Positions 865 through 17,002 of a stretch of DNA of 64,000 nucleotides are shown in pieces. The translations under genes and the position numbers were made by a program. The stretch's first letter is position 1, and each line of letters starts with the position of its first letter. The notes beneath the pieces are model-generated. The model worked only from the letters and a program-made list of their open reading frames with translations, did not search any database and had not been told where the DNA came from. Source of the stretch: Escherichia phage vB_EcoM_ESCO8. Location of the stretch: the sequence record OM386653.1; one strand, given 5' to 3'.

Positions 865-866
865 TA

Positions 867-1540: not shown

Positions 1541-2526
1541 AATACTTAGTAACAGGTGGTTTAGGCTTTATTGGAAGTGCAGTAGTTCGTTTCCTGGCTA
1601 AAAATACTAAGAATGATATTTACGTTATAGATAAATGGGGTTACGCTTCAGACCCTAGAAATTTATCAGAAACACCTAATGTAAAGTTTTGTCGTGTTGA
1701 CTTGACAAATGCGCAGTTAACTGCTAAGATTGTGGCAGATGTTAATCCAGATTATATAATGCATCTTGCAGCAGAGAGTCACGTAGATAATTCAATAGCA
1801 TCACCGAGTGTTTTTATAAATTCAAATATTGTTGGAACATTTAATCTTCTAGAGGCTGTTCGTTTAATGGGAGATAAATCAAATCTTAAAATGTTCCATC
1901 ATATTTCAACAGATGAAGTGTATGGTGATATGGAAGAAGGGGATTATCCGTTTACAGAACAGAATCCTTATAAACCAAGTAGTCCATATGCTGCATCTAA
2001 AGCTGCAAGCGATCATTTGGTAAGAGCATGGCATCGTACTTATGGTATTCCGACAGTTATAACAAATTGTTCAAATAATTTTGGAGCATATCATCATCCA
2101 GAAAAACTAATACCTAAAACGATAACAAATATCTTGATGCATAAACCAATCCCTGTTTATGGCAATGGTCTTCAAGTAAGAGATTGGTTATACGTTGACG
2201 ATCACGCAGAAGCATTACACCTAGTAGTAACTAAAGGCAAATCTGGAGAAACATATAATATTGGGAGCAGAAACCCTAGAACTAATATTGATGTAATCTA
2301 TATGATTTGTGATTATATGGATGCGGTGTATCCATCTGAAACAGATGCTTGTAGCCTCATTGAAATGGTTACAGATAGACCTGGACATGATTTAAGATAC
2401 GAAGTGAATCCTTATAAGATTGAAAAGGAATTAGGGTGGAAAGCTAAAGGCATATTTGAAGAAAAACTTTATTCAACCATTGATTGGTATGTAGATAACA
2501 AAGAGTGGTGGGAAAATAAAGTTTAA
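1537..2526 (+). CDS. rmlB: dTDP-glucose 4,6-dehydratase
   Basis: 329 aa; N-terminal Rossmann motif [13 protein letters not shown], catalytic YxxxK ([13 protein letters not shown]), typical RmlB length. Confidence 0.9.
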
Positions 2527-2534
2527 GGAGGAGT

Positions 2535-3404
2535 ATGAAAGGTATTATCTTAGCAGGTGGTAGTGGAACAAGACTTTACCCAGTTACTAAAGGGGTTAGT
2601 AAACAACTATTACCAATTTATGATAAGCCTATGATTTATTATCCACTCTCTGTCCTAATGCTTTCTGGAATTAGGGAAATACTAATAATTACAACACCAG
2701 AAGATCAAATTAATTTTGTAAATCTTCTAGGTGATGGTTCTTCTTTTGGTATTTCCCTACAGTATGCAATACAGGATAGCCCAAGAGGTTTAGCAGAAGC
2801 GTTTATTATTGGTGAGAACTTTATTGGTGAAGATTCTGTAGCACTTGTGCTAGGTGATAATTTATTCTTTGGTCAGAGTTTTGGTAGCATTTTAGATTCT
2901 GCTAAAGAACATATTGAAAAGAATGGTGGAGCTAATATTTTTGGGTATCACGTAAATGATCCTGAAAGATTTGGTGTTGTTGAGTTTGATTCTGAAGGTA
3001 CAGTGGTGAGTATTGAAGAAAAACCAAAAGCACCAAAAAGCAACTATGCAATCACAGGCTTGTACTTTTACGATAATTCTGTTGTACAGAAAGCTAAAAG
3101 CGTTAAACCTTCTGCTAGAGGGGAGTTAGAGATTACAGATATAAATGAGATGTACTGGAAAGAAAAGGCTTTACGTGTCTGTAAACTAGGAAGAGGTTTC
3201 ACTTGGCTGGATACAGGAACACATGAAAGTCTTATGGAAGCATCTCAATTTGTTCATGCAATAGAAAAGCAACAAGGTATGAAGGTTGCATGCCTGGAAG
3301 AGATTGCTTTTAAAAATGAATGGATTACTTTAGACTCTGTAAAAAGTTCTGGAGAGGTTTTAAGTAAAACAGACTACGGTAAGTATTTACTTAAATTAAA
3401 ATAA
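2535..3404 (+). CDS. rmlA: glucose-1-phosphate thymidylyltransferase
   Basis: 289 aa; [18 protein letters not shown] nucleotidyltransferase signature; follows rmlB. Confidence 0.9.
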
Positions 3405-3416
3405 AGGGGGAATTAA

Positions 3417-3971
3417 ATGATTCAAGCAACAAAAATCGAAGATTTGTTGATCATTCAACCTGACGTTTACGGAGATGAACGTGGTTTTTTCTTAGAAAGT
3501 TTTAATCAGGCTTTATATGATCAATACATAGGTAAACAAAACTTTGTCCAAGATAACCATTCACGTTCTATTCGAGGAGTTCTACGTGGGCTTCATTTTC
3601 AAAAGAAAAACCCACAAGGGAAGTTAGTACGTTGTGTTCGTGGTGAAGTTTATGATGTTGCTGTAGATATTAGGGTTGGTAGTCCAACATTTGGAGAATG
3701 GGTAGGTGTTCTCTTATCTGAAAAGAATAAAACACAATTTTGGATTCCTCCTGGTTTCGCTCATGGCTTTGTTGTGATTAGTGACATTGCTGATTTTGAA
3801 TATAAATGTACAGAATATTACGATCCGACTTCAGAGTGTAGTCTTGCGTGGAATGATCCAGATATCAATATTGATTGGGGTTTTGATTTAATCTTTAATG
3901 ATATTAATTTTAAACCTATCTTGTCACAAAAAGATCAGCAAGCCAAAACACTAAAGGAGATCATATTTTGA
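3417..3971 (+). CDS. rmlC: dTDP-4-dehydrorhamnose 3,5-epimerase
   Basis: 184 aa cupin-sized protein with RGLHFQ and FAHGF motifs; third gene of rml cluster. Confidence 0.85.
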   Translation: MIQATKIEDLLIIQPDVYGDERGFFLESFNQALYDQYIGKQNFVQDNHSRSIRGVLRGLHFQKKNPQGKLVRCVRGEVYDVAVDIRVGSPTFGEWVGVLLSEKNKTQFWIPPGFAHGFVVISDIADFEYKCTEYYDPTSECSLAWNDPDINIDWGFDLIFNDINFKPILSQKDQQAKTLKEIIF

Positions 3972-4798
3972 CAAAATTTTTAATCTTTGGTTCAAAAGGT
4001 CAATTAGGACAGTCTTTGGCAAAAGTTGCGCCCGAAGATGTTATTTTGATTGAAGCAAGTGATGTAGACATTACCAACTTTAAAGATGTTATGAATAGTC
4101 TTGTACAGCATGTGCCTGATGTTGTTGTGAATTGTGCGGCTTACACGGCAGTAGATAAAGCTGAAGAAGATGTTAACACCTGTATAAATGTTAATGCATA
4201 CGGTGCAACAAACATTGCCAAAGCATGTAATGATTTACTGATACAGTTTGTACATATTTCAACAGACTATGTTTTTGATGGGCATGTTGCTGGCACAGAA
4301 GATAGTAAAACAAACCCCTTGAACACCTACGGTTACAGTAAACAATTAGGTGAAACTTTAGTACAAACAGTTTGTCCTACAGCACTTATTATCAGAACAG
4401 CTTCTGTTTATAGTGAATTTGGACATAACTTTTTGAAAACTATGTTGGAACGCTACAACGGTGGTCAAAAAGAATTTAATGTAGTATGTGATCATTTGTC
4501 ATGTCCTACTTATGCACCTGATCTTGCAGAAACAATTTTTAAACTTGTAAAAGATGGTGTAAATAGTAAAGTTGTACACTATGCAGGTGCAGATTATATT
4601 TCTTGGTATGATTTTGCACGAAAGATATTTCTTGTTATAGATTTATCTGTTACAGTTAATCCTGTATCTGCTTCAACCTATAATTCCAAAGCAGTCAGAC
4701 CAGCAACATCTTATTTAAAAACAGATCCTACTTTAAATCCGCGAAGTGTTGATAGCGGTATTGTAAGAACTTTAACTATACTTTTAAACAAGGAGTGA
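3968..4798 (+). CDS. rmlD: dTDP-4-dehydrorhamnose reductase
   Basis: 276 aa; N-terminal Rossmann-like FGSKGQLGQSL; position after rmlC; TTG start overlapping rmlC stop. Confidence 0.75.
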   Translation: MTKFLIFGSKGQLGQSLAKVAPEDVILIEASDVDITNFKDVMNSLVQHVPDVVVNCAAYTAVDKAEEDVNTCINVNAYGATNIAKACNDLLIQFVHISTDYVFDGHVAGTEDSKTNPLNTYGYSKQLGETLVQTVCPTALIIRTASVYSEFGHNFLKTMLERYNGGQKEFNVVCDHLSCPTYAPDLAETIFKLVKDGVNSKVVHYAGADYISWYDFARKIFLVIDLSVTVNPVSASTYNSKAVRPATSYLKTDPTLNPRSVDSGIVRTLTILLNKE

Positions 4799-5061
4799 AA
4801 ATGAATTTTATTATCTACGGTAAACCAAATTGTCCTTTCTGCACTAACGCTAAGATTCTACTAGAACAGCGTGAACAGGATTTTAAATATCTTACCTTAG
4901 ATGAAGACTATTCTTTAGATCAGATTCAGAATCTGGTTTTAGAGAAAACAGGTGTTCTACCACGCACATTTCCTCAGATTTTTGTGGAAGATGGTGAACA
5001 GCTAACCCACGTAGGAGGTTTTTCTGAACTACGTGAATTCATGGCTCAGATTGCGGAGTAA
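4795..5061 (+). CDS. glutaredoxin (NrdC/NrdH-like redoxin)
   Basis: 88 aa; active-site CPFC near N-terminus, TFPQIFV and GGF motifs typical of glutaredoxins. Confidence 0.8.
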   Translation: MKMNFIIYGKPNCPFCTNAKILLEQREQDFKYLTLDEDYSLDQIQNLVLEKTGVLPRTFPQIFVEDGEQLTHVGGFSELREFMAQIAE

Positions 5062-5065
5062 CAAT

Positions 5066-5209
5066 ATGAAAGGTAAACAGAAACGTAAGATCTTTTCTCG
5101 TGCTTTGGCAACAGAGCTTAAGTCCCAAACTAAAAAGACGAAGCCTAAACGTGAAATGTCTCCTGAACACCTACTGTTTCAAGAGCTAGATCATGGGGAG
5201 GGCGACTGA
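5066..5209 (+). CDS. small basic protein (47 aa)
   Basis: Not in ORF track; ATG 5 nt after grx stop; Lys/Arg-rich. Confidence 0.3.
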   Translation: MKGKQKRKIFSRALATELKSQTKKTKPKREMSPEHLLFQELDHGEGD

Positions 5210-5221
5210 TATAAGGAAAAC

Positions 5222-5722
5222 ATGGCTAAAGTAGTTGATGTGTTTGATATGTTACGTTTTGATGAAGGACTAAAGCTAACTGTATATCCTGATACCGAAG
5301 GGTATTGGACAGTTGGTATTGGACACCTTCTGACAAAACTCAAAGATAAAGCAGAAGCTATACGCATTCTTGATAACTTAGTAGGTAGAAAAACCAATGG
5401 AGTTATTACTGAAGCGGAAGCTAGAAAAATCTTTGAGAGTGACGTAAAGAAAGCGATACAACAAATCCATTCAAGTACCATACTATCTCCTATTTACGAT
5501 AAAGTAAGTCCTAATCGTAAAATGGCTATTATTAATATGGTATTTCAAATGGGGTTGAAAGGTGCAGAATCTTTCAAAAATAGCTTGACTTTAGTGAGTA
5601 ATTCATATTATACTCAAGCCTCTATAAATTTACGTAAAAGTAAATGGTATCGCCAAACGCCTAATCGCGCAGAGCGTGTAATTCAGGTACTTAAAACTGG
5701 AACATTAGACGCTTATAACTAA
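5222..5722 (+). CDS. e: T4-type lysozyme (endolysin)
   Basis: 166 aa; MLRFDEGLKLTVYPDTEGYWTVGIGHLLTK closely matches the T4 lysozyme N-terminus including catalytic Glu/Asp/Thr positions. Confidence 0.9.
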   Translation: MAKVVDVFDMLRFDEGLKLTVYPDTEGYWTVGIGHLLTKLKDKAEAIRILDNLVGRKTNGVITEAEARKIFESDVKKAIQQIHSSTILSPIYDKVSPNRKMAIINMVFQMGLKGAESFKNSLTLVSNSYYTQASINLRKSKWYRQTPNRAERVIQVLKTGTLDAYN

Positions 5723-5725
5723 ACA

Positions 5726-5746
5726 AAGGGGCGAAAGCCCCTTTTA
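5726..5746 (+). terminator. rho-independent terminator (ggggcgaaagcccc + T-run)
   Basis: GC hairpin followed by tttt directly after lysozyme stop; same hairpin recurs at 17012. Confidence 0.6.
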
Positions 5747-5760
5747 TAAGGAGTGCAAAC

Positions 5761-6513
5761 ATGGGAAACAAAACCGCAAAGGCTCGTCGTCAATCAGCAG
5801 CCAATGATGACAAACGTGCCAGTCGTTATGCGGCTAAAGCAGTAGGAAATGATGATTACCGTCTTGATGAATTTACCCCTGTTGGGAATCAAGAAGCTAT
5901 TGTAAGAAGCATGGTTTGGAATGATTTAACCATTGTTAATGCCCCAGCAGGAACAGGAAAAACGACAACAGCACTATGGAAAGCATTGCAAATGCTTAAA
6001 GCTGGTGACTTCAGAAAGTTGATTTTCCTTAAAAACCCGACAGAAGTAGGTGATGATCAAATTGGTTTCTTATCTGGAGATAAGACTGATAAACTAGCAG
6101 CACACTACGAATCAACTAAAAGAATTTTCCAACAGTTTATGACTGCAAATAAATTGGAAAACGATATTGCAAGTGGCAAAATTGAACTTAATATTCCAAA
6201 CTATGCACTAGGTGCTACGTGGGATAACAGCATTATTCTTATTGATGAAGTTCAACTTATGTCACCAAATACAGTAAAACTTCTCCTTGAGCGAGCAGGT
6301 CTTAATACACGTATTGTCATTATGGGTGATGTTAATCAAACATATGCAATTAAACGAAGAGCTAACGGGTTAGGTGATTTGTTAGATCGTGTTGTTCCTA
6401 TTAATGAAGAAGGAGAAAGGGAAGCTATTGTGGATTTTATTGGTTATGTTGAAATGACAACTGCTGATAACCAACGTTCCCGTTTGTCTCAGTTCATCAC
6501 GGAAGTATATTAA
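5761..6513 (+). CDS. phoH: PhoH-like ATPase
   Basis: 250 aa; Walker A NAPAGTGKTT, Walker B ILIDEVQ, VIMGDVNQ motif. Confidence 0.85.
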   Translation: MGNKTAKARRQSAANDDKRASRYAAKAVGNDDYRLDEFTPVGNQEAIVRSMVWNDLTIVNAPAGTGKTTTALWKALQMLKAGDFRKLIFLKNPTEVGDDQIGFLSGDKTDKLAAHYESTKRIFQQFMTANKLENDIASGKIELNIPNYALGATWDNSIILIDEVQLMSPNTVKLLLERAGLNTRIVIMGDVNQTYAIKRRANGLGDLLDRVVPINEEGEREAIVDFIGYVEMTTADNQRSRLSQFITEVY

Positions 6514-6549
6514 TAATTACAAGGCAAGGATGCCTGTTATGGAGGTTAA

Positions 6550-7044
6550 ATGACGCTAATTGAGATTGATCGCAATGGTATTGATGAATGCTATCAAGCT
6601 GGCTTAGTTAAGCCGAATGAGTTTAGACAGATTTATATTGACAAGATTGAAAAAGAAATATCTCTTCGTTTAGAGAACATGACAACTTTGCAAAAAGTTC
6701 AGATGTTTTTTAGTTGGTTAAAAGGCGAGGATTGGCTAACTAAATATTACCAGGAATTATCTGATAGTCAAGAAGGCTTGTTTGAGTGTATAATAAATAT
6801 AGCTGGGTCTAATTCAGAATTACTCCTGATTGATGAAGAAGATTCTAAACTTCTTTTTCTTAGCAGTATCTTTCACAAGAAATCTATGTTAGTAAGAAAT
6901 TGCAGTGATTTACTAAATCATCCACTAACAAGAACTAATAAAATTCTTGTGGATAAAGAAACACTAAGAGCTATTGATTACCTCCGTAAATATGTAAGCG
7001 GTGGTAAAGCAGTCCTTAAAACACTACAGGAGGAAGTACAATGA
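6550..7044 (+). CDS. hypothetical protein (164 aa)
   Basis: ORF track; stop overlaps next start. Confidence 0.5.
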   Translation: MTLIEIDRNGIDECYQAGLVKPNEFRQIYIDKIEKEISLRLENMTTLQKVQMFFSWLKGEDWLTKYYQELSDSQEGLFECIINIAGSNSELLLIDEEDSKLLFLSSIFHKKSMLVRNCSDLLNHPLTRTNKILVDKETLRAIDYLRKYVSGGKAVLKTLQEEVQ

Positions 7045-7694
7045 CAACAATTATTGCAACACGTAACAAAATTCTGTCTGACGGTAAAGTAACAGTAGGT
7101 AGTCGTGTAGACACTTTAAATTTCAAGAAAGTGCGTAAAATTGGGGATTACCTTGTTGGTGGTGCAGGACGTCTGTCTTCTATCTTGACTTTCTTTTCTT
7201 GGTTCGAACAAAACTTACAATGCCAAGCAGCACAAGAGACAATCCCAGGTTTGGTGATCCAGTCAGATCCTGATAAAGAAGATGAAGAGTTTGTGGCATT
7301 GGTTGTTCACCCAGACGGTAAAATTTATATGCACGAGGGTAATAATCCAACACGAGCATATCCTTTAACTGAAGATTATTATGCTGTTGGTAGTGGGGCA
7401 GATTTTGCTTTAGCAGCTTTAGATGCAGGGGCAACTCCAGAAGAAGCGATGGAAGTTGCAAAACTACGAGATGCTTTTTCCGGTGGTGAAACTTTTGTCG
7501 AAGAGATCGAAGAACAACTGGAGCTAACAGCGGAAGATATTCTGAACTTCAGCAAGGAGCAACTAATTAGTATGCTGTTGACTGGTGATCCTGATAGTGA
7601 TGAAGCTGAAAGTATTTTAGCAGAAATGAAAGAATCACAAGAAAAAGTATTGACAGTCTCTGAAAAACTTGATAAAGTGTCCTCTGATAATTAA
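7041..7694 (+). CDS. HslV-like Ntn peptidase (proteasome-type) with acidic C-terminal extension
   Basis: N-terminal MTTIIATRN (Thr right after Met as in HslV), GGAGRLSS and YAVGSGADFALAA resemble HslV GFAGGTAD / GSGGPYA blocks; no HslU partner in window. Confidence 0.65.
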   Translation: MTTIIATRNKILSDGKVTVGSRVDTLNFKKVRKIGDYLVGGAGRLSSILTFFSWFEQNLQCQAAQETIPGLVIQSDPDKEDEEFVALVVHPDGKIYMHEGNNPTRAYPLTEDYYAVGSGADFALAALDAGATPEEAMEVAKLRDAFSGGETFVEEIEEQLELTAEDILNFSKEQLISMLLTGDPDSDEAESILAEMKESQEKVLTVSEKLDKVSSDN

Positions 7695-7702
7695 TCTAGT
7701 AT

Positions 7703-7725
7703 AAACCCCCCTTTAAGGGGGTTAT
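7703..7725 (+). terminator. rho-independent terminator (ccccccTTTAAggggg)
   Basis: Perfect hairpin directly after HslV-like stop followed by tt. Confidence 0.5.
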
Positions 7726-7736
7726 TAGGAGGAGAT

Positions 7737-8165
7737 ATGTTACCAGTACCTGTAACCTTTGTAGAAAAAGCCTACTACTCTTTAGAACAAAACTGTAAAA
7801 GAGCTAAAAATTTTATTGAAAGTTTAGCAGAACAGCGTTACACTGTATCTAAAAAGGGATGGTTCAGAACTTCACAATATTTAGTCAACCCTTTCGGAGA
7901 AGTTCGTGTGTTGTATGGCAACACAGAAAATATCTTAGAAAGAATGTTAGAACTAGATAGGATCTCCTCCTGTGATTATCAACTGTTGAAATTTTACGAT
8001 GTGTCAGAAAGCGTTAAAAACTTTCTTGACGACTTATGTAAACGAAAAACAGAAGAAGATACAATACCAGTATCTATGGAAGAATTAACATTCTTAAGAG
8101 ATATTATGGTTTTTGAAGAAGACCCTGAAATCACAAAAGAGGAGATTTTAAGTAGTGGCAAATAA
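7737..8165 (+). CDS. hypothetical protein (142 aa)
   Basis: ORF track; aggaggagat RBS before ATG. Confidence 0.5.
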   Translation: MLPVPVTFVEKAYYSLEQNCKRAKNFIESLAEQRYTVSKKGWFRTSQYLVNPFGEVRVLYGNTENILERMLELDRISSCDYQLLKFYDVSESVKNFLDDLCKRKTEEDTIPVSMEELTFLRDIMVFEEDPEITKEEILSSGK

Positions 8166-8664
8166 GTATGATCGTCCACCAACTGATTACTATCCTACTC
8201 CACAAAAATGTATAAATGCATTATTTAGTGTAATAGATTTTAATAACCTTAAAGAAGAAGGTTTTATTTTTGCAGAACCGTGTAAAGGCGCTGCTGCTGC
8301 AATTTATCAACATTTTCCAGAAGGATCAGAATATTGTGAGTTAGAAGAAGGGAAAGATTATTTTAACCACGAATGGCATACTAAGCCGGATATTATAATC
8401 ACAAATCCCCCATTCAAACTTGCACTTGAGTTCTTGCAAAAGAGCTTAAAAGAAGCAGACGTTTGCATATACTTGTTGCGTCTTGGGTTCCTAGAGTCTA
8501 TTAAACGAAGGGAATTCCATAAACAGAATCCACCAACAAACTTGATTGTTCTTTCTGAACGACCATCTTTTGTTGCAGGTGGTACTGATAAGACAGCATA
8601 TGCTTGGTACGTCTACGACCCAAAAAACAGGCTGGGTTTAACTCAACCTTTCTATTTTGTTTAA
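8155..8664 (+). CDS. small amino-methyltransferase-like protein (putative DNA N6-adenine or N4-cytosine MTase)
   Basis: 169 aa; YYPTP, FAEPCKGAAAA (AdoMet-binding-like) and IITNPPF (motif IV) in gamma-class order. Confidence 0.55.
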   Translation: MANKYDRPPTDYYPTPQKCINALFSVIDFNNLKEEGFIFAEPCKGAAAAIYQHFPEGSEYCELEEGKDYFNHEWHTKPDIIITNPPFKLALEFLQKSLKEADVCIYLLRLGFLESIKRREFHKQNPPTNLIVLSERPSFVAGGTDKTAYAWYVYDPKNRLGLTQPFYFV

Positions 8665-8677
8665 GAGGAGCATTTTT

Positions 8678-8908
8678 ATGACCGAGAAATTTACTGTTAC
8701 TATGGAACTCACCTTTGATGAAGAAGATTTTGATCTTCATGTATCAACTAAAGCAGATAACATTCACACAACACAGAGTGTTGCAATCGCTATGTTCTTT
8801 AAACAAGCTATTGCAAAACAAGCTGAAGTATGTGCTGGTTTAGCTGTAGAGTATGCAGAAGTTGTCAAGGTTCTTGAAAGTGCTCGTAACGGCGATTGGG
8901 ATGAATAA
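8678..8908 (+). CDS. hypothetical protein
   Basis: ORF track 8657..8908; ATG at 8678 after aagaggag RBS preferred. Confidence 0.4.
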   Translation: MTEKFTVTMELTFDEEDFDLHVSTKADNIHTTQSVAIAMFFKQAIAKQAEVCAGLAVEYAEVVKVLESARNGDWDE

Positions 8909-9111
8909 TGGCATACAATTACTATCTGGTATATTTTAACGAAACTAAGAAAAAAGACACAGGAACTAATGTTTATGCGGAATCCGAAGAACACGCAAAA
9001 GCTATTGGTTCCGTGCTTCTTTCTAGAATAGCAGGTGAAGAAATTCCTGTAGAGGCTATTTTTGCAGAAGTTGACCCTGGTATTCAAGAGGATGATATTA
9101 CCACTACTTAA
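8908..9111 (+). CDS. hypothetical protein (67 aa)
   Basis: ORF track; start overlaps previous stop. Confidence 0.4.
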   Translation: MAYNYYLVYFNETKKKDTGTNVYAESEEHAKAIGSVLLSRIAGEEIPVEAIFAEVDPGIQEDDITTT

Positions 9112-9168
9112 CTGTTGACTTTAACATTAAGGTAGTGCATACTTCCTGTAACAGAACAGGAGGGTATT

Positions 9169-9831
9169 ATGAAGTTTGTACTGTATCATCGACTTTCTAA
9201 GAAGAAACAACAAGGCAACCAGTATGGTATAGAATCACAGGAAGCAGATATTCAACGCTTCCTGGATTCACAAGAAAATTATACTATTGTAGGTAGCTTT
9301 GCAGAGTTTTATTCGGGTAAAGGCGATTGGAAGCAACGTAGAGAGCTTGTAAAAGCTGTTAATCTTTGTAAAGAAACAGGTGCTACACTTGTTGTTGCTA
9401 AGGTTGACCGTCTTGGACGTAACACAGCCTCTGTTGCAACCTTATTAGAGATGATTAATGTACGAATAGCAACTATGCCCTCCGCTGAAAATATGATAAT
9501 AAATATTTTAGCAGTTCTGGCAGAAGAAGAGGCTCGTGCAATATCTGATCGTGTTAAGAAGAGCCTTAAGGTAGCAAAAGCGAAGGGAACGCTTCTTGGT
9601 GCAGCAAACCCTAAATACAAAAGAACAGATTATACGAAAACGGAAGAAGCAAAACGCTCAAAAGAGTTTGCGCTTTCTTTAAAAGATTCTTTAGTTGCAT
9701 ACAGAGCTTGTAAAACGCCATATATGACGATTGCAAAGCATCTGAATGAATCAGGAAAGAGAACTATTCGTGGGAGTTTGTTCGATGCCAAAGCGGTACA
9801 ACGTCTTTGTGCAAAATTGAATATTAAATAA
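9169..9831 (+). CDS. small serine recombinase (resolvase/invertase family)
   Basis: 220 aa; YHRLS (catalytic Ser position), VVAKVDRLGRN, AVLAEEEARAISDRVKKSLKVAKAKG match resolvase catalytic-domain blocks; C-terminal helix-turn-helix-like tail. Confidence 0.7.
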   Translation: MKFVLYHRLSKKKQQGNQYGIESQEADIQRFLDSQENYTIVGSFAEFYSGKGDWKQRRELVKAVNLCKETGATLVVAKVDRLGRNTASVATLLEMINVRIATMPSAENMIINILAVLAEEEARAISDRVKKSLKVAKAKGTLLGAANPKYKRTDYTKTEEAKRSKEFALSLKDSLVAYRACKTPYMTIAKHLNESGKRTIRGSLFDAKAVQRLCAKLNIK

Positions 9832-9840
9832 GGAGGAAAC

Positions 9841-10044
9841 ATGGTAGTTCAATCTTTTGAGGAGACTGTTAAAAAACAATTCCTATCGAAGCGAGCGATG
9901 GTTGAATTTTTGCATTTTCTCGAAGTAGATAGGGTACTTATTGAGACTACACCAGATGGTAACTGGCAAGTCTCGTATATTGCCACCAGGCATATCGTAG
10001 ACAGTACGAAAGAAGAAAGTTCGGAAGTTACGGTTGCTAGTTAA
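9841..10044 (+). CDS. hypothetical protein (67 aa)
   Basis: ORF track; aaggaggaaac RBS. Confidence 0.4.
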   Translation: MVVQSFEETVKKQFLSKRAMVEFLHFLEVDRVLIETTPDGNWQVSYIATRHIVDSTKEESSEVTVAS

Positions 10045-10055
10045 AGGAGTTAAAT

Positions 10056-10628
10056 ATGCGTTTAGCTTTTAACGGGAAGATAAGCACAGCAAACATATTA
10101 TCAGCCATAGGATTATTAGGTAAAAAATTCACACCTTTCAGTTTACCTGTTTGTGTAGATTTTGATCATGTATTTGATATTAATAATCCTTCACGTTGTA
10201 TCGCCAGAAGTAATATTGATAACCCAAGTGAAAATCTGTTTTATATTACTAAACCATCCCAGGCAATTTTGAATCAATGGGAAGCAGGTCTGATTAAACC
10301 AGGTAAATATTTTGCATTACTACCTTGTAAATCATTGGCTATAGAGGACAGTCTAAACTATGCAAACAATCTTGTTGTTACAGCATTCATTGTCTCAGAA
10401 AAAGAAGAAACTGCGGCACTTGCAAACACTGTTAAATCTTTGTATGATGCTTTGGGTGTTACTTACACTACCTTCGTTTGTGAAGATATTCCACATTGCG
10501 TTGAATTCGTGGTGAATGGTGTAACTGTATGTCGTGTAGAAACAACTCAAGACGAAGACGTTTTTATTACTGTAGCCGATGTAATATCTGAACCTGTGTT
10601 TAGCTACGCAGTTTCATTAACACATTAA
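10056..10628 (+). CDS. hypothetical protein (190 aa)
   Basis: ORF track; aaggag RBS. Confidence 0.5.
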   Translation: MRLAFNGKISTANILSAIGLLGKKFTPFSLPVCVDFDHVFDINNPSRCIARSNIDNPSENLFYITKPSQAILNQWEAGLIKPGKYFALLPCKSLAIEDSLNYANNLVVTAFIVSEKEETAALANTVKSLYDALGVTYTTFVCEDIPHCVEFVVNGVTVCRVETTQDEDVFITVADVISEPVFSYAVSLTH

Positions 10629-10638
10629 GGAGAAGGGG

Positions 10639-10965
10639 ATGAAAATAACGACAGAACAGGCTTTAATAGACAAAGGAAGGGAAATCTTAGAAAGTCATTT
10701 GGAGGATATTCAAAGGACTCCAGGGTATCTCGGCTGGCGTATACAAGAAGCCGTCGATTTTCTACCCCGTAAAAATAAAGAGATTGAAGTAAGATCTCTA
10801 TTCCTCCTTGTTAAAGTAGATGGTGACGCTATATACAAAGATGTAGCGTCTCACATTGAACAAATAGAAGAAAAAGCCTACAAAGAATTTGCAGATCTTG
10901 TTGTAGAACATAATATAGAAGGTAAAGTTAATATCTTTATACTTATGGATTTTGAGGAGAGTTGA
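10639..10965 (+). CDS. hypothetical protein (108 aa)
   Basis: ORF track; aaggagaagggg RBS. Confidence 0.45.
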   Translation: MKITTEQALIDKGREILESHLEDIQRTPGYLGWRIQEAVDFLPRKNKEIEVRSLFLLVKVDGDAIYKDVASHIEQIEEKAYKEFADLVVEHNIEGKVNIFILMDFEES

Positions 10966-11708
10966 TGCTAGTATATCAAGAAATTAGTGTAAAAGATGAT
11001 CAAGACCTGTTTATTATTGGTGATTTACATGGTTGCTTTGATTTGTACCAGAAAGGTGTTAATACTTTAGGTATCCGAGATCAAGATGTTGTTGTATCTT
11101 TAGGAGATCTTACAGATCGCGGCAAGCAGAATTTTCGTTGTGTTGTTGAATTCACCAGAAAGCTAAATCGTTATGGTATTCGTGGAAATCATGAAGATAT
11201 GATGATTAAAGGGTTGCTAGAAGGTGATAGACGATATTACGAATGTTGGTTTCAGAACGGAGGCCATACAGTTCTAGACGAGTGTGGAGAAGAGGGTGCA
11301 ACTGCTCTTGCTTTGATGCTAGAAGATTTACCTGTTGTACTTGTTGTCAATTATCGTAATATGAAACTAGGCTTTATTCACGGTGGGTATCCTTCAGTTT
11401 TGGAACATTTACCAGTGACAGAAGTTTTGCCATTTTGTTTGAATATGAATAAAGAGCAAGTTTCTCGATTCACAGAATCTTTAATGTGGGATCGTGATAT
11501 GATAGATTGCGCACTTGAAGGGATTCTTCTTCCTAGAGTTTCAGGAGTAGATTATGTATTTCACGGGCATTCTTATGTTCCTAAACCTGTGATTAGCAGT
11601 AATAGGGTATATATGGACACAGGATCTTGCTTCAATGGTAATTTAACCTTTGCATATTTTGATGATTCAAATACGTTACAATTTTATTCTACTTTAGAGG
11701 AGGACTAA
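10962..11708 (+). CDS. Ser/Thr protein phosphatase (calcineurin-like metallophosphoesterase)
   Basis: 248 aa; GDLHG, GDLTDRG, GNHE metal-binding motifs in canonical order. Confidence 0.8.
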   Translation: MMLVYQEISVKDDQDLFIIGDLHGCFDLYQKGVNTLGIRDQDVVVSLGDLTDRGKQNFRCVVEFTRKLNRYGIRGNHEDMMIKGLLEGDRRYYECWFQNGGHTVLDECGEEGATALALMLEDLPVVLVVNYRNMKLGFIHGGYPSVLEHLPVTEVLPFCLNMNKEQVSRFTESLMWDRDMIDCALEGILLPRVSGVDYVFHGHSYVPKPVISSNRVYMDTGSCFNGNLTFAYFDDSNTLQFYSTLEED

Positions 11709-12028
11709 TGTATAAAATCACAATTAAAGAAACAGTAGGAGAACTTACGAAAGAAACTACTATTGAGACGGAAGATGTTGAGTTAGTCAAAGAGCTTTTA
11801 TTTCCAAAACCAGAAATAAAAGATAATGATGAACAGTTGGATGAAGATAATGAGACAGCAAGGGATAAATGGAAGAAACAACTAGCGGAGATTTGGAAAA
11901 AGCCTGAAGTAACTCCTCCATTTGATCCTCGTAGACCTTATAATCCTTGGGAAATTGGAAGCCCTTGGTTTACGTACCCTATCACTCCAATTGTTAATCC
12001 AATTGTTACTCCCAATATTACTTGTTAA
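11708..12028 (+). CDS. hypothetical protein, Pro-rich C-terminus
   Basis: ORF track 106 aa. Confidence 0.4.
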   Translation: MYKITIKETVGELTKETTIETEDVELVKELLFPKPEIKDNDEQLDEDNETARDKWKKQLAEIWKKPEVTPPFDPRRPYNPWEIGSPWFTYPITPIVNPIVTPNITC

Positions 12029-12038
12029 GGAGAAAACC

Positions 12039-12617
12039 ATGAGCGATTTATTCTACACAGGTGTTGGTAGCAGAGATATTACAGACGAAGAATGGGATAC
12101 TATGGTATCTGTTGCAAAATGGCTATCTACATGGTTCATTTTGCGATCTGGTAAAGCAGAAGGTGCAGATTCCGCATTTGAATGCGGGGTATATGATAGT
12201 GGGAACAATACAAAGAAAGAAATATACATCCCTTGGCTCTCGTTTAAAGGTAATGAAATAGAGGGAGAGGTTATTGTTCTTGACAGACCAGATAGTGTAA
12301 ACTATGCTTTAACCTTGCAATATGCAAAAGAATTGCATCCAGCTTGGGACAGATTATCTCAAGGTGCTAAAAAATTACATCAAAGAAATATCCACCAAGT
12401 TCTTGGAAGAGATCTTGAGAATCCAAAACCATCTTGTTTTCTTTTAGCTTGTGCAAATACAGATAAAAATGGAGATCCTTTAGGTGGTACAAGAACAGCT
12501 TGGATGTTGGCTAAAAAGTTTAATGTTCCTTGTTTTAATATTCGAGGTAAAAGTAAAAAACAAATTTTCGAATTTATTAAGCCTATTTTAGAGGAGAATG
12601 GTCTTGTCCAGAAATAA
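12039..12617 (+). CDS. SLOG-like (DprA/LOG/YpsA-type) Rossmann-fold protein, tentative
   Basis: Track ORF starts at 11922; ATG at 12039 after aaggagaaaacc RBS preferred. YTGVGSRD then LRSGKAEGAD resembles the GxGxR / SGxAxGxD SLOG signature. Confidence 0.4.
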   Translation: MSDLFYTGVGSRDITDEEWDTMVSVAKWLSTWFILRSGKAEGADSAFECGVYDSGNNTKKEIYIPWLSFKGNEIEGEVIVLDRPDSVNYALTLQYAKELHPAWDRLSQGAKKLHQRNIHQVLGRDLENPKPSCFLLACANTDKNGDPLGGTRTAWMLAKKFNVPCFNIRGKSKKQIFEFIKPILEENGLVQK

Positions 12618-13122
12618 TATAAGCGTCATTAAAGATAGCTTTATTGATGTAACAAACGATATTGTACCTACAATACAATATATAGTTGAGGCACAAGGTT
12701 TAAACTTTATACGTGATAAAGTTAAGATTGTTTTTCATAACACTCCAGGTTTTGTAACAGTGGGTTCAACAAAAACGCCGTGCTCTACAGATCTGATTAC
12801 TTTAGACAAAAACTTAACACAAGAAGAAGTAGAAATTCTTAACCTCTATTGGTTAGGTTTTAAAAGATACGAGGATACAGCTTTATCCAGAATGTCAACT
12901 ATTTTAGCTAATATTCTGGTTCGGAAAATTTCTAAAATATGGGATGAAGAAAACCCAGATGAAATAGTTTTACACTTTGCTAAACCGGAAGACGGGGCAT
13001 ATGATATAGACACATCTGAAATGGCTTATGGATTTATTATTTCTGGTAATGTATTACAGATGGAATCTTTATTGTATGTTGAGACAGTAAAACACAATAA
13101 CAACTACGAGGAGGTTGTATGA
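12598..13122 (+). CDS. hypothetical protein (174 aa)
   Basis: ORF track. Confidence 0.5.
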   Translation: MVLSRNNISVIKDSFIDVTNDIVPTIQYIVEAQGLNFIRDKVKIVFHNTPGFVTVGSTKTPCSTDLITLDKNLTQEEVEILNLYWLGFKRYEDTALSRMSTILANILVRKISKIWDEENPDEIVLHFAKPEDGAYDIDTSEMAYGFIISGNVLQMESLLYVETVKHNNNYEEVV

Positions 13123-13376
13123 AAGGTTTAGAGTTTAACTTTGTAGATGCGTGGGAAGGATGGGATGAACTAGGAGTAGGGGATTTATGTTTTTATGATG
13201 TTACCTTGAAGGAAGAATACAAACATCTAGCTCCTAGTGAAGATTGCGATGTGATTCTATCTATTCTGTTAAGTCAGTCTATAGTGCAATTCGATTTCTT
13301 AAAAGGTAGTGAATGTATTGAAAGTAAAGCATTCCGTTTAGAAGTTTCTCTTGGTGAAGAAGTTCCTGTAGAATAA
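13119..13376 (+). CDS. hypothetical protein (85 aa)
   Basis: ORF track. Confidence 0.4.
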   Translation: MKGLEFNFVDAWEGWDELGVGDLCFYDVTLKEEYKHLAPSEDCDVILSILLSQSIVQFDFLKGSECIESKAFRLEVSLGEEVPVE

Positions 13377-13380
13377 TATA

Positions 13381-13402
13381 AACCCGCTTCGGCGGGTTTT
13401 TT
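13381..13402 (+). terminator. rho-independent terminator (cccgcTTCGgcggg + T6)
   Basis: Hairpin with tetraloop followed by tttttt. Confidence 0.6.
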
Positions 13403-13403
13403 G

Positions 13404-13432
13404 TTGACAACACTAGTTTTTTCGAATAAACT
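13404..13432 (+). promoter_or_regulatory. sigma70-like promoter (TTGACA-N17-TAAACT)
   Basis: Perfect -35 hexamer immediately after terminator, upstream of 13459 CDS. Confidence 0.45.
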
Positions 13433-13458
13433 ACAGAAAAACAGAAGAGGAGTTTAGC

Positions 13459-13869
13459 ATGTATTATAGTGATTATTTTGTAAACCCAACAAAAGAACAA
13501 CTTCAATCAGCAGTGGATAAGATGCAGATTGTAGTTAAAGAATGTGAGAAAATAAGAAAACAACTACAAGAGGAGACTGTTGTTGTTAATAAATGGTTTG
13601 GTCTTAAGAAGAAAGTTGTTAGTAAACACAATATCATCCTTGAAAAAGCAAAAACGACAGGAACTAGTTACGCCTTACAAGCCTTGTTACTAAATTACAT
13701 TGATATAGAACAACATTCTCTTCTGCACTGTTGGCTTAACAGCCCTGGTATTGAGGATCTCTTGTTCTGGTTATCGTGTGAATCTGTACTTTTAAATGAG
13801 AATGAGGCTTACCGTTTAAACTTCTGCCTCAAGGCAGAATTACCAGCTAGTGTTAAGGAGAAGAAGTAA
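13459..13869 (+). CDS. hypothetical protein (136 aa)
   Basis: ORF track; gaggag RBS. Confidence 0.5.
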   Translation: MYYSDYFVNPTKEQLQSAVDKMQIVVKECEKIRKQLQEETVVVNKWFGLKKKVVSKHNIILEKAKTTGTSYALQALLLNYIDIEQHSLLHCWLNSPGIEDLLFWLSCESVLLNENEAYRLNFCLKAELPASVKEKK

Positions 13870-13871
13870 TA

Positions 13872-14861
13872 ATGAAAGTTTTAAGTCTTTTTGATGGTAT
13901 GTCAGGAGGAATGCTTGCGCTAAAAAGTGCAGGTATTGAAGTAGATACATATTACGCTTCAGAATTAGACAAATTTGCCGTAGCTGAAAGCCAAGCAAAT
14001 TTTCCAGATATTATTCAGTTAGGTGATGTTACAAAATGGAGAGAATGGGATATCCCGTGGGGAGAAATTGATCTTTTGTTAGGTGGTAGTCCGTGTCAAG
14101 GCTTCTCTTCTTCTGGTAAGGGTTTGAACTTTCAAGATCCGCGATCTAAGCTATTCTTCGAATATGTTGAAATTCTTGAACATATTAAAAAGTTTAATCC
14201 TAATGTTAAGTTCATGCTTGAAAACGTTAAGATGAAAGCGGAGTGGGAAAACGTGATCACAAGTTACTTAGGTGTTGATCCCGTATTCATTAACTCCGCA
14301 GATTTCACGGCACAGAATAGACAACGTTTATACTGGTGCAACTGGGAAATAAAACCCTGGGAGATTACCAATGAAGTGTTGCAAGATATCATTGAAGATG
14401 ATAGTATTGTAGACAGAGATAAGGCTTATTGCATAGATGCAAATTATGCCAAAGGTGGTAATATAGAACAGTATTTTGAAAAGAGTCGCAGACAACTGGT
14501 TTTTTATCCGGCAGCAATATATGGGCGTAGAATTAATGAAAATGGCAAACGTAGTACATCTAAAACTGATCGTTTGGTACATTGTTTGGAAGTTCAGGAC
14601 AGTGGAAAAACTCGTTGCCTCACAACTGTGCCTAAAGACGTACTATTAGCTTATATTCCACCTGGAAGATATCTAGATGCCTTTGAAAAATTAAGTGAAG
14701 GCGTACATTATAGAAAGTTAACGGTTAAAGAGTGTTGCCGCTTGCAAGGTGTGCCAGATGACTACTTTAAAGTGAGTAGTAACACACAAGCATATAAGAT
14801 GTTAGGCAATGGTTGGACTATACCTGTCATTGCACATATTCTTAAATGTATGGAGGAATAA
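13872..14861 (+). CDS. DNA cytosine-5 methyltransferase
   Basis: 329 aa; motif I LFDGMSGG, motif IV GGSPCQGFS, motif VI ENV, motif VIII QNRQR, motif X GNGWTIPV. Confidence 0.85.
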   Translation: MKVLSLFDGMSGGMLALKSAGIEVDTYYASELDKFAVAESQANFPDIIQLGDVTKWREWDIPWGEIDLLLGGSPCQGFSSSGKGLNFQDPRSKLFFEYVEILEHIKKFNPNVKFMLENVKMKAEWENVITSYLGVDPVFINSADFTAQNRQRLYWCNWEIKPWEITNEVLQDIIEDDSIVDRDKAYCIDANYAKGGNIEQYFEKSRRQLVFYPAAIYGRRINENGKRSTSKTDRLVHCLEVQDSGKTRCLTTVPKDVLLAYIPPGRYLDAFEKLSEGVHYRKLTVKECCRLQGVPDDYFKVSSNTQAYKMLGNGWTIPVIAHILKCMEE

Positions 14862-14983
14862 TGGAAACATTGTGGAAAGGCTGGAAGACTGCTGTGATAG
14901 CTTTTATAATTCCATTAACTTTTCTTGGTTGGTGTTTTTGGGAATTTATCTTTTGGTTAATTTCCCATATACATTGGGGGTAA
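14861..14983 (+). CDS. small hydrophobic peptide (40 aa)
   Basis: Not in track; ggaggaataATG overlapping dcm stop, stop abuts next ATG; one predicted TM helix. Confidence 0.35.
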   Translation: METLWKGWKTAVIAFIIPLTFLGWCFWEFIFWLISHIHWG

Positions 14984-14984
14984 T

Positions 14985-15593
14985 ATGACTCAAAAAGTTG
15001 CATATCAAGTAGATCGTGAAGATGGTGAAGGTAGTGTTGTAGTTTTTGATACACATGGTCTTGCAGCAAGACGCAAAGGTGCTTGTCTACTGGACATTGG
15101 TGGTGAAGATGAATACTGCACTGTACGTAGAGTAAAAGAATTTGATCAATATGCTGAAAAAGGTTTTGTACCCGTGAAAGCACTATTAGAAGCTGGATGG
15201 TGGATACCTAGTGCACATGATTATGATATTTTGGAAGATACAGATGAATTCAACAGTGAAGATTTTGTTTTTTCTCTGGATGAAAAATGTGTTTGGAAAA
15301 ACTGGGATGAAATGGAACGCCATGCTTATTTTATAAACGAAGCATTAGATCGTAAAACTTGGTTTGAAAATACAGTTAAAGCAGCGTATCCTCAATTTAC
15401 TTTTACACAGTTTTGGGGTGGCCCACATCATATTACTCATACAGCATATTTCGAGTTCCCAGGTTCACGTTATAAAGGTACTGTTTATTGGGATTGGGAC
15501 GAGAACAAAGAACCTTCTGCTCAAGATTTCCGTTGCTATGTTTGTCAAGGTGATCAAGAAGCCCTTGACAAGTACCTTAAAAGTCTGGTATAA
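14985..15593 (+). CDS. hypothetical protein (202 aa)
   Basis: ORF track. Confidence 0.5.
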   Translation: MTQKVAYQVDREDGEGSVVVFDTHGLAARRKGACLLDIGGEDEYCTVRRVKEFDQYAEKGFVPVKALLEAGWWIPSAHDYDILEDTDEFNSEDFVFSLDEKCVWKNWDEMERHAYFINEALDRKTWFENTVKAAYPQFTFTQFWGGPHHITHTAYFEFPGSRYKGTVYWDWDENKEPSAQDFRCYVCQGDQEALDKYLKSLV

Positions 15594-15608
15594 TCCGTAA
15601 AACTTAAC

Positions 15609-15632
15609 CAAAGCCCCAATCAGGGGCTTTAT
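15609..15632 (+). terminator. rho-independent terminator (gccccAATCAggggc + ttt)
   Basis: Hairpin after CDS stop. Confidence 0.5.
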
Positions 15633-15647
15633 TTGTGTGGAGGATAT

Positions 15648-16178
15648 ATGGGTTTTGATGATATGTTATTATATGAGGAGGCTTGTGTGAAAGAAGCTAT
15701 GGCTTTACCAGTTTTATCTATTGATATTACAACAGTAGACACTTTTTCAGATTGTGAAACGTGTGGATCGTATTCGTCTATTGTACATGAAGTTAGTGGG
15801 GATTTAGGCACTTACGAAGATGGAGATTATGCAAGTTGTTTAGGTGATAATCGAGATGGTGAAGTGGCGAATGTTGCAAACTGGATTGCTTCTAAGTTAA
15901 AAGAAAGAAATCGTCCGTTCCCTAATCTTCTTACACCAGAAGCTATGCTTAAAGCTGAACAAGAGATGTATGATTATGGTTATAAAGTAGATTATGACTA
16001 TAATGATCCTAAATATAAAAAATTGAGTGACAAGTATTGGGAACTAGCTAATGCTTATGATAAATACTACTCTACAGAAAACATTGTTAAATTGTTTTTA
16101 GATTTTGGAGTAGAAATTAATTGGGATTTCGAAGAGGAAGAGCGTTACGACGCATCTTCTTGGGATGATGATTACTAA
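15648..16178 (+). CDS. hypothetical acidic protein
   Basis: Track ORF from 15633; ATG at 15648 after ggaggatat RBS preferred. Confidence 0.5.
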   Translation: MGFDDMLLYEEACVKEAMALPVLSIDITTVDTFSDCETCGSYSSIVHEVSGDLGTYEDGDYASCLGDNRDGEVANVANWIASKLKERNRPFPNLLTPEAMLKAEQEMYDYGYKVDYDYNDPKYKKLSDKYWELANAYDKYYSTENIVKLFLDFGVEINWDFEEEERYDASSWDDDY

Positions 16179-16189
16179 GAGGATATTGA

Positions 16190-17002
16190 ATGCGAAGAGT
16201 AATTTTTGTTAGTGGCGCAGGTTTAAGTGCAGACAGTGGGATTCGAACGTTCCGAACAGACACAGATAGTGGTCGTGCCTTATGGGAAGAATATGACTTA
16301 GAAGAGGTCTGCGATATTGGAGCTTTCCAAGCAGGTTATCGTGTGAGAACATCTCCAGATCTTCCAGTGGTCGGTGGTGTAGACGAGAACGGTATGGACT
16401 TGTATGCCAAAACACACGAATTTTATAACAAAAGACGTGTTGAGCTTAAAGATGTACAACCTAATGCTGCACATATTCAAATAGCAAAGTGGTTTAAGGA
16501 ATATCCTAACCAAGTAGTAAACTTGACAACAAACGTCGATGATCTACTAGAGCGAGCAGGTGTGGACAGGGATTCTGTTATTCACGTGCACGGGTATCTC
16601 CCTGAAGTAGTTTACCGTATGCATCCTGGAGATTACAAAACACTGGTAGACATTGGTTACAATAGTATAAACATAGATGATTATAACTGGGTGAAGCCTA
16701 ATGTTGTATTTTTTGGTGAGGCTGCACCTTTGTATGCAGATATGGCTCACTTGTTTGATACTTTGACCATGCAAGATTTGGTTGTTGTAGTAGGATGTTC
16801 AAACCAAGTTATCAATTTTAATTGGGAATTATTCCCTGCACTTAATATGGGTACAAAAATGATTGTTGTTAACCCAGGAATTAATTACGAAGAAACTCTT
16901 CTTTACGAAGATAGAGGAGTCTTTGTTTACAGAGAAAAGGCAGCAGATGCTTTTAGCAATCCTGCTTTCATAAAAATGATAGAAGATCATTTGACTAAGT
17001 AA
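16190..17002 (+). CDS. Sir2-family (sirtuin-like) protein lacking the zinc-ribbon cysteines
   Basis: 270 aa; FVSGAGLSADSGIRTFR, TTNVDDLLERAG, HVHGY (catalytic His), VFFGEA and VVVGCS blocks in canonical order; no CxxC...CxxC module. Confidence 0.75.
   Translation: MRRVIFVSGAGLSADSGIRTFRTDTDSGRALWEEYDLEEVCDIGAFQAGYRVRTSPDLPVVGGVDENGMDLYAKTHEFYNKRRVELKDVQPNAAHIQIAKWFKEYPNQVVNLTTNVDDLLERAGVDRDSVIHVHGYLPEVVYRMHPGDYKTLVDIGYNSINIDDYNWVKPNVVFFGEAAPLYADMAHLFDTLTMQDLVVVVGCSNQVINFNWELFPALNMGTKMIVVNPGINYEETLLYEDRGVFVYREKAADAFSNPAFIKMIEDHLTK

Follow-up and report, generated by a model that had tools for sequence, protein, structure and literature searches.

The window analysed here is a stretch of 64,000 nucleotides from Escherichia phage vB_EcoM_ESCO8 (sequence record OM386653.1), a phi92-like virulent myovirus of the genus Justusliebigvirus in the subfamily Stephanstirmvirinae. 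It carries the gene for a small serine recombinase, the features of which are collected in Table 1. The gene is set off from its neighbours by 57 bp of non-coding DNA upstream, which bears the promoter candidate, and by 9 bp downstream. A first-pass annotation of the sequence had placed the gene in a block of methyltransferases and small genes without assigned function. Two methyltransferases are indeed present (8155-8664 and 13872-14861), but the description covers only part of this early or auxiliary block, which also holds genes for PhoH, an HslV-like peptidase, a Ser/Thr phosphatase, a DprA-like protein, Sir2 and the dTDP-rhamnose pathway. In phi92 the recombinase gene lies between gp054 and gp052, and the order endolysin, PhoH, HslV-like peptidase, recombinase, DprA-like protein is common to phi92 and the Baltic Shewanella phage 1/4. 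No transposase was found in the neighbourhood of the recombinase gene and no tail-fibre gene lies near it, and an Rfam scan of the window gave no matches. When the two flanking small ORFs were compared with the corresponding neighbours in Phapecoctavirus ESCO13, in search of a directionality factor or accessory protein, no similarity was seen; since these ORFs are not conserved across genera, the recombinase has no obvious partner protein.

Table 1 Features of the recombinase locus, in coordinates of the window.
Feature	Position	Strand	Basis or remark
Sigma-70-type promoter candidate, TTGACT-17 nt-CATACT	9115..9143	+	Consensus scan (9/12) and conservation in relatives
Ribosome-binding site, AGGAGG	9158..9163	+	5 nt 5' of the ATG; same site annotated in phi92
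Serine recombinase gene, homologue of phi92 gp053 / YP_009012384.1	9169..9831	+	ATG-initiated ORF, 220 aa plus stop; PF00239
Catalytic domain and long E-helix (aa 1-141)	9169..9591	+	Pfam alignment, invariant columns, AlphaFold2, Foldseek
Ser10 codon; DRLGR motif (aa 80-84)	9196-9198; 9406-9420	+	Within the catalytic domain of the recombinase
Predicted C-terminal four-helix DNA-binding domain (aa 159-216)	9643..9816	+	Resembles a truncated 'Recombinase' (PF07508) domain

The consensus match of the promoter candidate is by itself not significant. Relatives with 72-87% identical recombinases retain the two hexamers (TTGACA ... GCATACT/TACAAT) but differ in the spacer between them. This is the pattern that a genuine host-type promoter leaves, and we therefore infer that the recombinase gene is probably transcribed early, from a host-type promoter of its own. 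In ESCO13 the gap between the upstream gene and the recombinase gene is 10 nt.

Residues 4-141 of the protein match the Resolvase N-terminal domain of Pfam (PF00239) with E = 8.4e-22 and 78.3 bits against a cut-off of 23.3, a score so high that the match is far beyond chance. The motif YHRLS includes Ser10, and VDRLGRN makes up residues 79-85. In an alignment of 33 homologues with 30-88% identity, Y6, R8, S10 and R57 are near-invariant and E46, D80, R81, R84, E121 and R128 are invariant. The catalytic positions align with Y6, R8, S10, D36, R45, D67, R68 and R71 of gamma-delta resolvase; the position of D36 is occupied by Glu across the whole family, which is a conservative swap. The first-pass annotation had described a small serine recombinase of 220 residues with intact catalytic-serine and DRLGR blocks, and had named substitution of the catalytic residues as one finding that would refute its proposal. 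The alignment upholds the description and shows no such substitution, with the residues intact in the 33 homologues. Since they are kept down to 30% identity, the catalytic set is both intact and under selection, and judged from its sequence the homologue of phi92 gp053 is apparently an active DNA-cutting-and-rejoining enzyme.

An AlphaFold2 model made with the family alignment as input had a mean pLDDT of 88.7 and showed a mixed alpha/beta catalytic domain, a long helix at residues 108-138, a linker that is weakly defined and, at the C-terminus, a four-helix domain with helices at 159-170, 172-180, 185-194 and 207-216. When the model was compared with the PDB using Foldseek, the large serine recombinase Bxb1 ranked first with 251 aligned columns, followed by the catalytic domains of gamma-delta, Sin and TP901-1. 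By sequence, the best match among solved structures was Sin (E = 1e-5), with Tn3 and gamma-delta at 2e-5 to 7e-5.

In the C-terminal domain, PF07508 was matched by 24 of the 33 aligned homologues (best E 3e-7), and the HTH_7 model of Pfam by none of the 33 at E <= 1. The window recombinase alone gave no PF07508 match at E <= 1, so for this protein the domain assignment depends on homology and fold. An 11-residue insertion relative to gamma-delta resolvase creates the motif IAxxLNxxGxxTxxGxxF/W, which in the window protein reads IAKHLNESGKRTIRGSLF. Models of longer or differently acting enzymes span most of the protein at low scores: the NCBIfam CcrB model covers residues 4-212 with 35.8 bits against a cut-off of 900, that of the Mpi master invertase (NF009949) residues 6-196 with 33.5 against 272, and that of YneB (NF049883) residues 3-193 with 29.8 against 175. 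Among the PHROG families, PHROG 125 'DNA invertase' was the top match (E = 1e-31), and PHROG 95 (integrase) spans residues 1-213 with E = 1.5e-25. As read from sequence and model, the C-terminal domain is a truncated PF07508-like domain and not the HTH_7 of Hin and the resolvases. The recombinase is thus a member of a poorly characterised short group that combines PF00239 with a truncated PF07508-like domain, and it lacks the features that define the Hin/Gin invertases, the Tn3-type resolvases or the large serine integrases.

The gene is a constant part of the genus. The region 8000-11000 of the window was matched by 55 phage records at 95-99.4%, and the recombinase gene was present in all 55 Justusliebigvirus records with 99-100% amino-acid identity. 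Further homologues were found in Phapecoctavirus (57% identity), in a Klebsiella phage (78%) and in Shewanella and Vibrio myoviruses (45-50%), while siphoviruses of Staphylococcus epidermidis carry 25%-identity homologues annotated as integrases, and Cin and Gin gave weak tblastn matches with 30-33% identity across the catalytic core. The homologue search gave no recombinase match in the related Vequintavirinae (rV5, PVP-SE1), so the function of the recombinase is not essential to this genome architecture. Among metagenomic relatives, in which about 24 neighbouring genes were compared, the recombinase was the best conserved gene or among the best, as in the relative L097, where it is 72% identical and its neighbours 31-68%. 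Outside phages the picture is different. A search with the DNA of the gene through 5,426 complete E. coli genomes and the plasmids in them gave no match, and in a set of 185,579 bacterial and archaeal species with one genome each, no relative exceeded 38% identity; the best bacterial relative, at 38%, lies in unrelated phyla outside the Enterobacteria. We conclude that the recombinase is inherited vertically and is under strong constraint.

The gene itself is already known, since exactly this gene has been deposited and annotated in public records as phi92 gp053 (YP_009012384.1), where RefSeq calls it a 'DNA invertase'. Other records name it resolvase, serine recombinase, recombinase family protein or hypothetical protein, and among the Phapecoctavirus homologues the mislabelling 'methionine ABC transporter ATP-binding protein' also occurs. 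The labels disagree and no public annotation of the phi92 gp053 orthologues rests on experiment; in the literature searched we found no experimental work on the recombinase or its homologues. [quoted passage not shown] Because the C-terminal domain is not HTH_7, the name 'invertase' is doubtful, and it finds no support in the domain architecture or in the comparative genomics described below. The gene is best read as 'serine recombinase, function unknown' instead of 'DNA invertase'.

The first-pass annotation had suggested that a nearby invertible or excisable DNA segment might exist, on which the recombinase would act. A search of positions 1-20000 of the window for inverted and direct repeats gave only GC-hairpin terminators or chance-level pairs, and no inverted repeat above chance near the gene. 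The best inverted repeat touching the recombinase gene pairs 3481-3500 with 9192-9211 at 18/20 positions. It was rejected as a pair of crossover sites, as the two arms lie inside the coding sequences of rmlC and the recombinase and recombination would destroy both. Direct repeats on either side of the block, at 5716-5745 and 17000-17029, were considered as excision sites; they belong to a five-copy family of GC-hairpin-plus-T-run elements present in both orientations. Such terminator-like repeats were rejected because the family is scattered and because the block is missing in no relative.

Comparison of genomes gave the same answer. Positions 1-25000 of the window are collinear in all 55 Justusliebigvirus records, on one strand, and the differences are indels only; each record matched in one place, or in two places only where the ends of a linear record cut the match. 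Among relatives with 72-87% recombinase identity no island of conserved DNA suggesting a binding site was seen within about 8 kb of the gene, and a 39-nt conserved block at 5050-5088 that was considered as a candidate site turned out to be a gene junction. A palindrome search with 11-nt arms across the genome of a complete relative returned 34 sites that form no family, and repeats of at least 18 nt in that relative were only terminator- or promoter-like. On these results we take it that the recombinase does not drive any invertible or excisable cassette near its gene, and the proposed local segment is not supported.

One inversion was found, far away. When the complete relative phage alia was compared with the window, a single segment in opposite orientation appeared at 46966-47836, within a cassette of about 0.9-1.0 kb at 46.9-47.9 kb and 37 kb from the recombinase gene. 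In a whole-genome comparison of alia, PD211 and A150, nothing but a piece of about 815 bp was inverted over about 148 kb. Genes homologous to phi92 gp214 and gp216 lie in the cassette, together with a divergent intergenic region of promoter-like sequence and the first 34 codons of an ORF. Among the 55 records, about 21 have it in the orientation of the window and about 33, including phi92, in the opposite one.

The cassette was considered as a target of the recombinase and was rejected as a switch on four grounds. No inverted repeats above shuffled controls were found at the cassette ends in either orientation. The orientation is fixed within lineages and tracks local sequence identity, since cassettes in the same orientation are at least 97.5% identical and inverted ones 94-96%. 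The junctions differ by non-homologous DNA (194 versus 202 nt), with one breakpoint inside an ORF, and one junction contains a fold-back between the arms of a 10-bp inverted repeat. Finally, the outgroup Phapecoctavirus has the gene order of the window, including a 144-aa ORF whose N-terminus is fused to gp217 in the phi92 form. As the outgroup shares the order of the window, the window form is taken as ancestral and the phi92 form as a single derived event. The phi92-form inversion is probably one derived rearrangement of illegitimate origin, and we do not attribute it to the recombinase.

What, then, does the enzyme do? The best explanation that we can offer, tentatively and with less than even confidence, is that the recombinase is a resolvase or cyclase acting on the DNA of the phage itself. 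Two copies of a short site in direct repeat, for instance one to each genome unit or one to each terminal repeat, would each be bound by a recombinase dimer, and the dimers would come together in a tetrameric synapse. Double-strand breaks with Ser10-linked ends, subunit rotation and religation would follow, and incoming linear or multimeric replicating DNA would be converted into monomeric circles early in infection. Direct repeats of this kind do occur in the group: phi92 has a linear genome with 343-bp direct terminal repeats, and the repeat corresponds to positions 29468-29810 of the window. A conserved block at 29464-29561, at the end of the terminal repeat, lies at the physical end of the genome; recognition by the terminase explains its conservation equally well as a recombination site. 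A res-like array was not found beside the recombinase gene, where the upstream spacer amounts to the 57 bp mentioned above. Direct terminal repeats do not in themselves call for a site-specific recombinase, as phages such as T7 and T5 illustrate, and resolution of concatemers could even oppose packaging.

Plasmid-borne relatives of the recombinase are widespread and share its two-domain layout, with about 35% identity over 96-100% coverage. One is encoded by the 7.3-kb plasmid pP18_i of Phaeobacter piscinae (WP_102906889.1), beside a replication initiator and a partition module of ParA and a ribbon-helix-helix partner, and these rep and par neighbours suggest, by analogy, that multimer resolution would be the expected job of the enzyme there. 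Another is encoded by the 6.4-kb plasmid pIITB3_2 of Synechococcus elongatus (WP_338431979.1), the other genes of which are unannotated. These relatives are only about 35% identical to the phage protein and themselves uncharacterised.

A second explanation is that the recombinase targets DNA other than that of the phage, namely the host chromosome, a prophage, a plasmid or a competing phage, and serves in host takeover or counter-defence, for instance through inversion or excision of some host element with an effect on infection. We regard it as unlikely, even though several observations point this way. The searches described above gave no target site in the phage, the neighbours include host-manipulation or auxiliary genes (Sir2, PhoH, methyltransferases, phosphatase), and the predicted promoter is of an early type. 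In two reports, the host serine invertases PinQ and PinR are described as inverting cryptic-prophage DNA and thereby altering phage adsorption (PMC12529663; bioRxiv 10.1101/2025.03.28.646004), a case which, as described there, indicates that recombinase-controlled host switches relevant to phages exist. On the other side, the DNA-binding domain of the window recombinase is unlike that of the Pin family, and the hosts of the clade span E. coli to Shewanella and Vibrio, so a host target common to all of them would need a very wide distribution. A combined picture can also be drawn, in which an early-expressed and active serine recombinase has been kept in a strictly virulent lineage from a time before its enterobacterial and marine members diverged, with either the terminal repeats (Cre/lox-like cyclisation and end protection) or host or competitor DNA (takeover or counter-defence) as its substrate, and not a phage switch; taken as a whole we consider this picture decidedly unlikely.

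The RefSeq reading, a DNA invertase that flips a segment of the phage either locally in the manner of Hin and Gin or at a distance in the manner of Mpi, with the 46.9-47.9 kb cassette as the candidate, we hold to be improbable. It can point to PHROG 125 as the top PHROG match, to the weak NCBIfam similarity to Mpi, and to the fact that the genus has exactly one inversion polymorphism, which happens to be a divergent-promoter cassette. The collinearity of the 55 records around the gene speaks against the local version, and the ends, junctions, lineage distribution and outgroup order of the cassette speak against the distant one; in addition the recombinase has no Hin-family HTH_7, and its Mpi score lies far below the cut-off.

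Improbable to a similar degree is that the protein no longer recombines DNA and is either a DNA-binding protein that regulates transcription or DNA architecture, for example, or a selfish relic of no use to the phage. Phage genomes often contain orphan recombinase-like genes, and no substrate was found for this one. However, a pure DNA-binding role would not enforce conservation of the catalytic residues, which are invariant or nearly so throughout the 33 homologues, and the conservation of the gene, among the highest in its block and at 99-100% in 55 genomes, together with a gene order that is kept in distant marine phages, makes a relic or a selfish mobile gene less likely.

The weakest reading, an integrase or excisionase-type enzyme serving a cryptic lysogenic, pseudolysogenic or plasmid-like state, draws on the PHROG 95 match, the CcrB/large serine recombinase similarity over residues 4-212 and the annotation of the S. 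epidermidis siphovirus homologues, and it is largely refuted and very improbable in view of a length of only 220 aa with neither zinc-ribbon nor coiled-coil domain, the absence of any copy in the 5,426 E. coli genomes with plasmids included, a best bacterial relative that lies outside the Enterobacteria, the lack of prophage matches already reported for the Phapecoctavirus homologue (PMC10282059) and the description of these phages as strictly lytic (PMC12210895).

The dismissal of an integrase has a practical side. Phages of Justusliebigvirus and Phapecoctavirus are popular candidates for phage therapy, and recombinase genes serve as flags for lysogeny. With no prophage copies in the E. coli genomes searched, no att-type domains and a stable gene order, the gene should be treated as a non-integrase, and it should not count as a lysogeny marker in these therapy candidates. 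Recombinases are said in some papers to be absent from genomes of these phages, as in the case of ESCO37 (PMC10269720); against this statement, our homologue search found in the ESCO37 genome a 56%-identical homologue of the window recombinase. The value of the present analysis is thus mainly corrective, in that the invertase label is unsupported, the local switch was not borne out and the gene is not a marker of lysogeny, and it raises the question why a virulent clade conserves a recombinase that is predicted to be active.

Compared with known systems, phi92 gp053 and the orthologues in the 55 records are the same gene as the window recombinase and show no substantive difference. The Hin/Gin/Cin/Pin invertases, such as Gin of Mu and Cin of P1, have the catalytic fold and residues in common with it, but the window recombinase has neither HTH_7, flanking 26-bp inverted sites nor an adjacent invertible segment, and Mu and P1 are temperate whereas the window phage is virulent. 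Where a recombinase has an HTH_7-type domain of the Hin/resolvase kind, its hix, gix or res sites lie beside the gene. The Tn3, gamma-delta and Sin resolvases have the same catalytic chemistry, and they act by deletion between direct sites, as is proposed here. The res region of Tn3-type resolvases has several subsites, measures about 115 bp, adjoins the gene and usually overlaps its promoter. In contrast, the window recombinase lacks an upstream res array and a transposase partner and has a different DNA-binding domain, and its strand 4 is joined to the E-helix by a loop 10 residues shorter than that of Tn3, gamma-delta and Sin. No transposon association was seen either, with no transposase nearby and a gene order that is stable across distant phages.

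In the large serine recombinases Bxb1, phiC31, TP901-1 and CcrB it is the start of the recombinase domain that corresponds to the C-terminal domain of the window protein. The large serine integrases have about 450-600 aa and need their zinc-ribbon and coiled-coil domains for selection of att sites; the window protein is less than half as long, without the remainder of the recombinase domain, the zinc ribbon or the coiled coil, and neither an attachment site nor a prophage form was found for the window phage. Mpi of Bacteroides fragilis and YneB of Bacillus are similar in size to the window recombinase and give weak model matches along its whole length, but the scores are far below the cut-offs and the window phage has no family of promoters flanked by inverted repeats. 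Mpi is a small serine recombinase able to act at sites far from its own gene.

The plasmid recombinases of Phaeobacter and Synechococcus have the same architecture as the phage enzyme, but they belong to circular replicons, for which the need for dimer resolution is obvious, and not to a linear phage genome with terminal repeats. For the resolvase or cyclase reading that we prefer, a parallel in a phage is Cre/lox of P1, in which Cre can cyclise the terminally redundant P1 DNA and resolve dimers. Cre is a tyrosine recombinase of a temperate phage with a defined loxP site and the window enzyme a serine recombinase, so the likeness is a functional analogy only: in both cases a phage recombinase would turn incoming DNA with redundant ends into circles and separate dimers into monomers.

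Across the approximately 148-kb genome, the comparison of alia, PD211 and A150 revealed a single inversion, a cassette that carries homologues of phi92 gp214 and gp216 along with a divergent promoter region, and that also includes the opening 34 codons of an ORF. When the orientation of this cassette was compared with that in related Justusliebigvirus phages, it was found to be opposite in phi92, alia and approximately 33 of the 55 relatives, while approximately 21 share the orientation of the window. In the phi92 form, the inversion joins the N-terminus of the ORF to gp217, resulting in a protein of 183 aa versus 112. The gene order in the Phapecoctavirus outgroup is that of the window, and the orientation of the cassette tracks the local phylogeny. 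Terminal inverted repeats were sought at both ends of the cassette, in either orientation and judged against shuffled controls, and none were found. The coordinates of this and the other features are collected below.

Features of the window discussed in the text (gene numbers are those of phi92)
Feature	Position	Strand	Remark
Inverted cassette, ~0.9-1.0 kb	46863-47881 (core match 46966-47836)		Orientation comparison with relatives
gp213 homologue	47900-48046		Protein 94% identical to Phapecoctavirus Ro121c4YLVW
ORF after gp213 homologue	48047-48370		Protein 97% identical to Phapecoctavirus Ro121c4YLVW
Terminators, GC hairpin plus T-run	5716-5745, 13379-13400, 17000-17029, 17749-17770		Families of near-identical copies
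Small-gene array	~33000-41000	-	
Conserved 39-nt block	5050-5088		Overlap of small genes gp063 (thioredoxin-like) and gp062
gp051 homologue	10056-10628		RefSeq-derived label 'histidyl tRNA synthetase'
Fur-box consensus matches	29719-29737, 30568-30586, 42159-42177, 42212-42230	-	
Direct terminal repeat, 343 bp	29468-29810		Single copy in window

Immediately beside the cassette, the gp213 homologue and the ORF that follows it, which is missing in phage alia, stand out against neighbouring genes that are 55-87% identical to Ro121c4YLVW. Since the two proteins are so much closer to their Phapecoctavirus counterparts, the comparison suggests that this stretch is a hot spot where a recent exchange between Justusliebigvirus and Phapecoctavirus took place.

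The longest repeats in the region of the serine recombinase gene (9169-9831) are the terminator families, one of which, AAAGGGGCGAAAGCCCCTTTT, is present in five copies genome-wide and in both orientations. Two relatives whose recombinase itself is just 79-87% identical carry the non-palindromic 39-nt block with no change. Direct repeats of 20-42 nt occur multiple times between the many small ORFs of the array, as observed for phage alia (81.2-89.5 kb), and probably represent early promoters or leader sequences present in repeated copies. Near the array the GC content drops sharply, from 0.43 (40-42 kb) to 0.33 (42-44 kb).

By tblastn we found a full-length homologue of the serine recombinase, 56% identical, in ESCO37 (OM386659.1, 12317-12979), where it is annotated as hypothetical. 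The published account, however, describes the ESCO37 genome as being without recombinases (PMC10269720), with which this homologue contrasts. Some Phapecoctavirus records label the homologue 'methionine ABC transporter ATP-binding protein'. Because a Pfam search with the gp051 homologue gave no match at E <= 0.01, its tRNA synthetase label also looks unfounded. Four UNVERIFIED records of 'Campylobacter phage' A150, A145, C3 and A110a (MG065639, MG065645, MG065656 and MG065689) state C. jejuni as the host. They are approximately 98-99% identical to the E. coli phage of the window in the regions compared and are classified by NCBI as Justusliebigvirus; the stated host is probably an error or a result of contamination.

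Scanning for the E. coli Fur-box consensus GATAATGATAATCATTATC, with at most three mismatches allowed, returned four matches where shuffles predicted 0.12. One of the four lies within the direct terminal repeat, close to a promoter-like sequence, and together they hint that this virulent phage has early promoters that respond to iron or Fur. The physical genome ends of phi92 fall at this repeat, inside the window, and since it is found there only once, the source assembly is circularly permuted relative to phi92. The approximately 95 nt closest to the right terminus of phi92 (29464-29561) are the only portion kept in other genera of the subfamily, and this conserved block may be a terminase signal.
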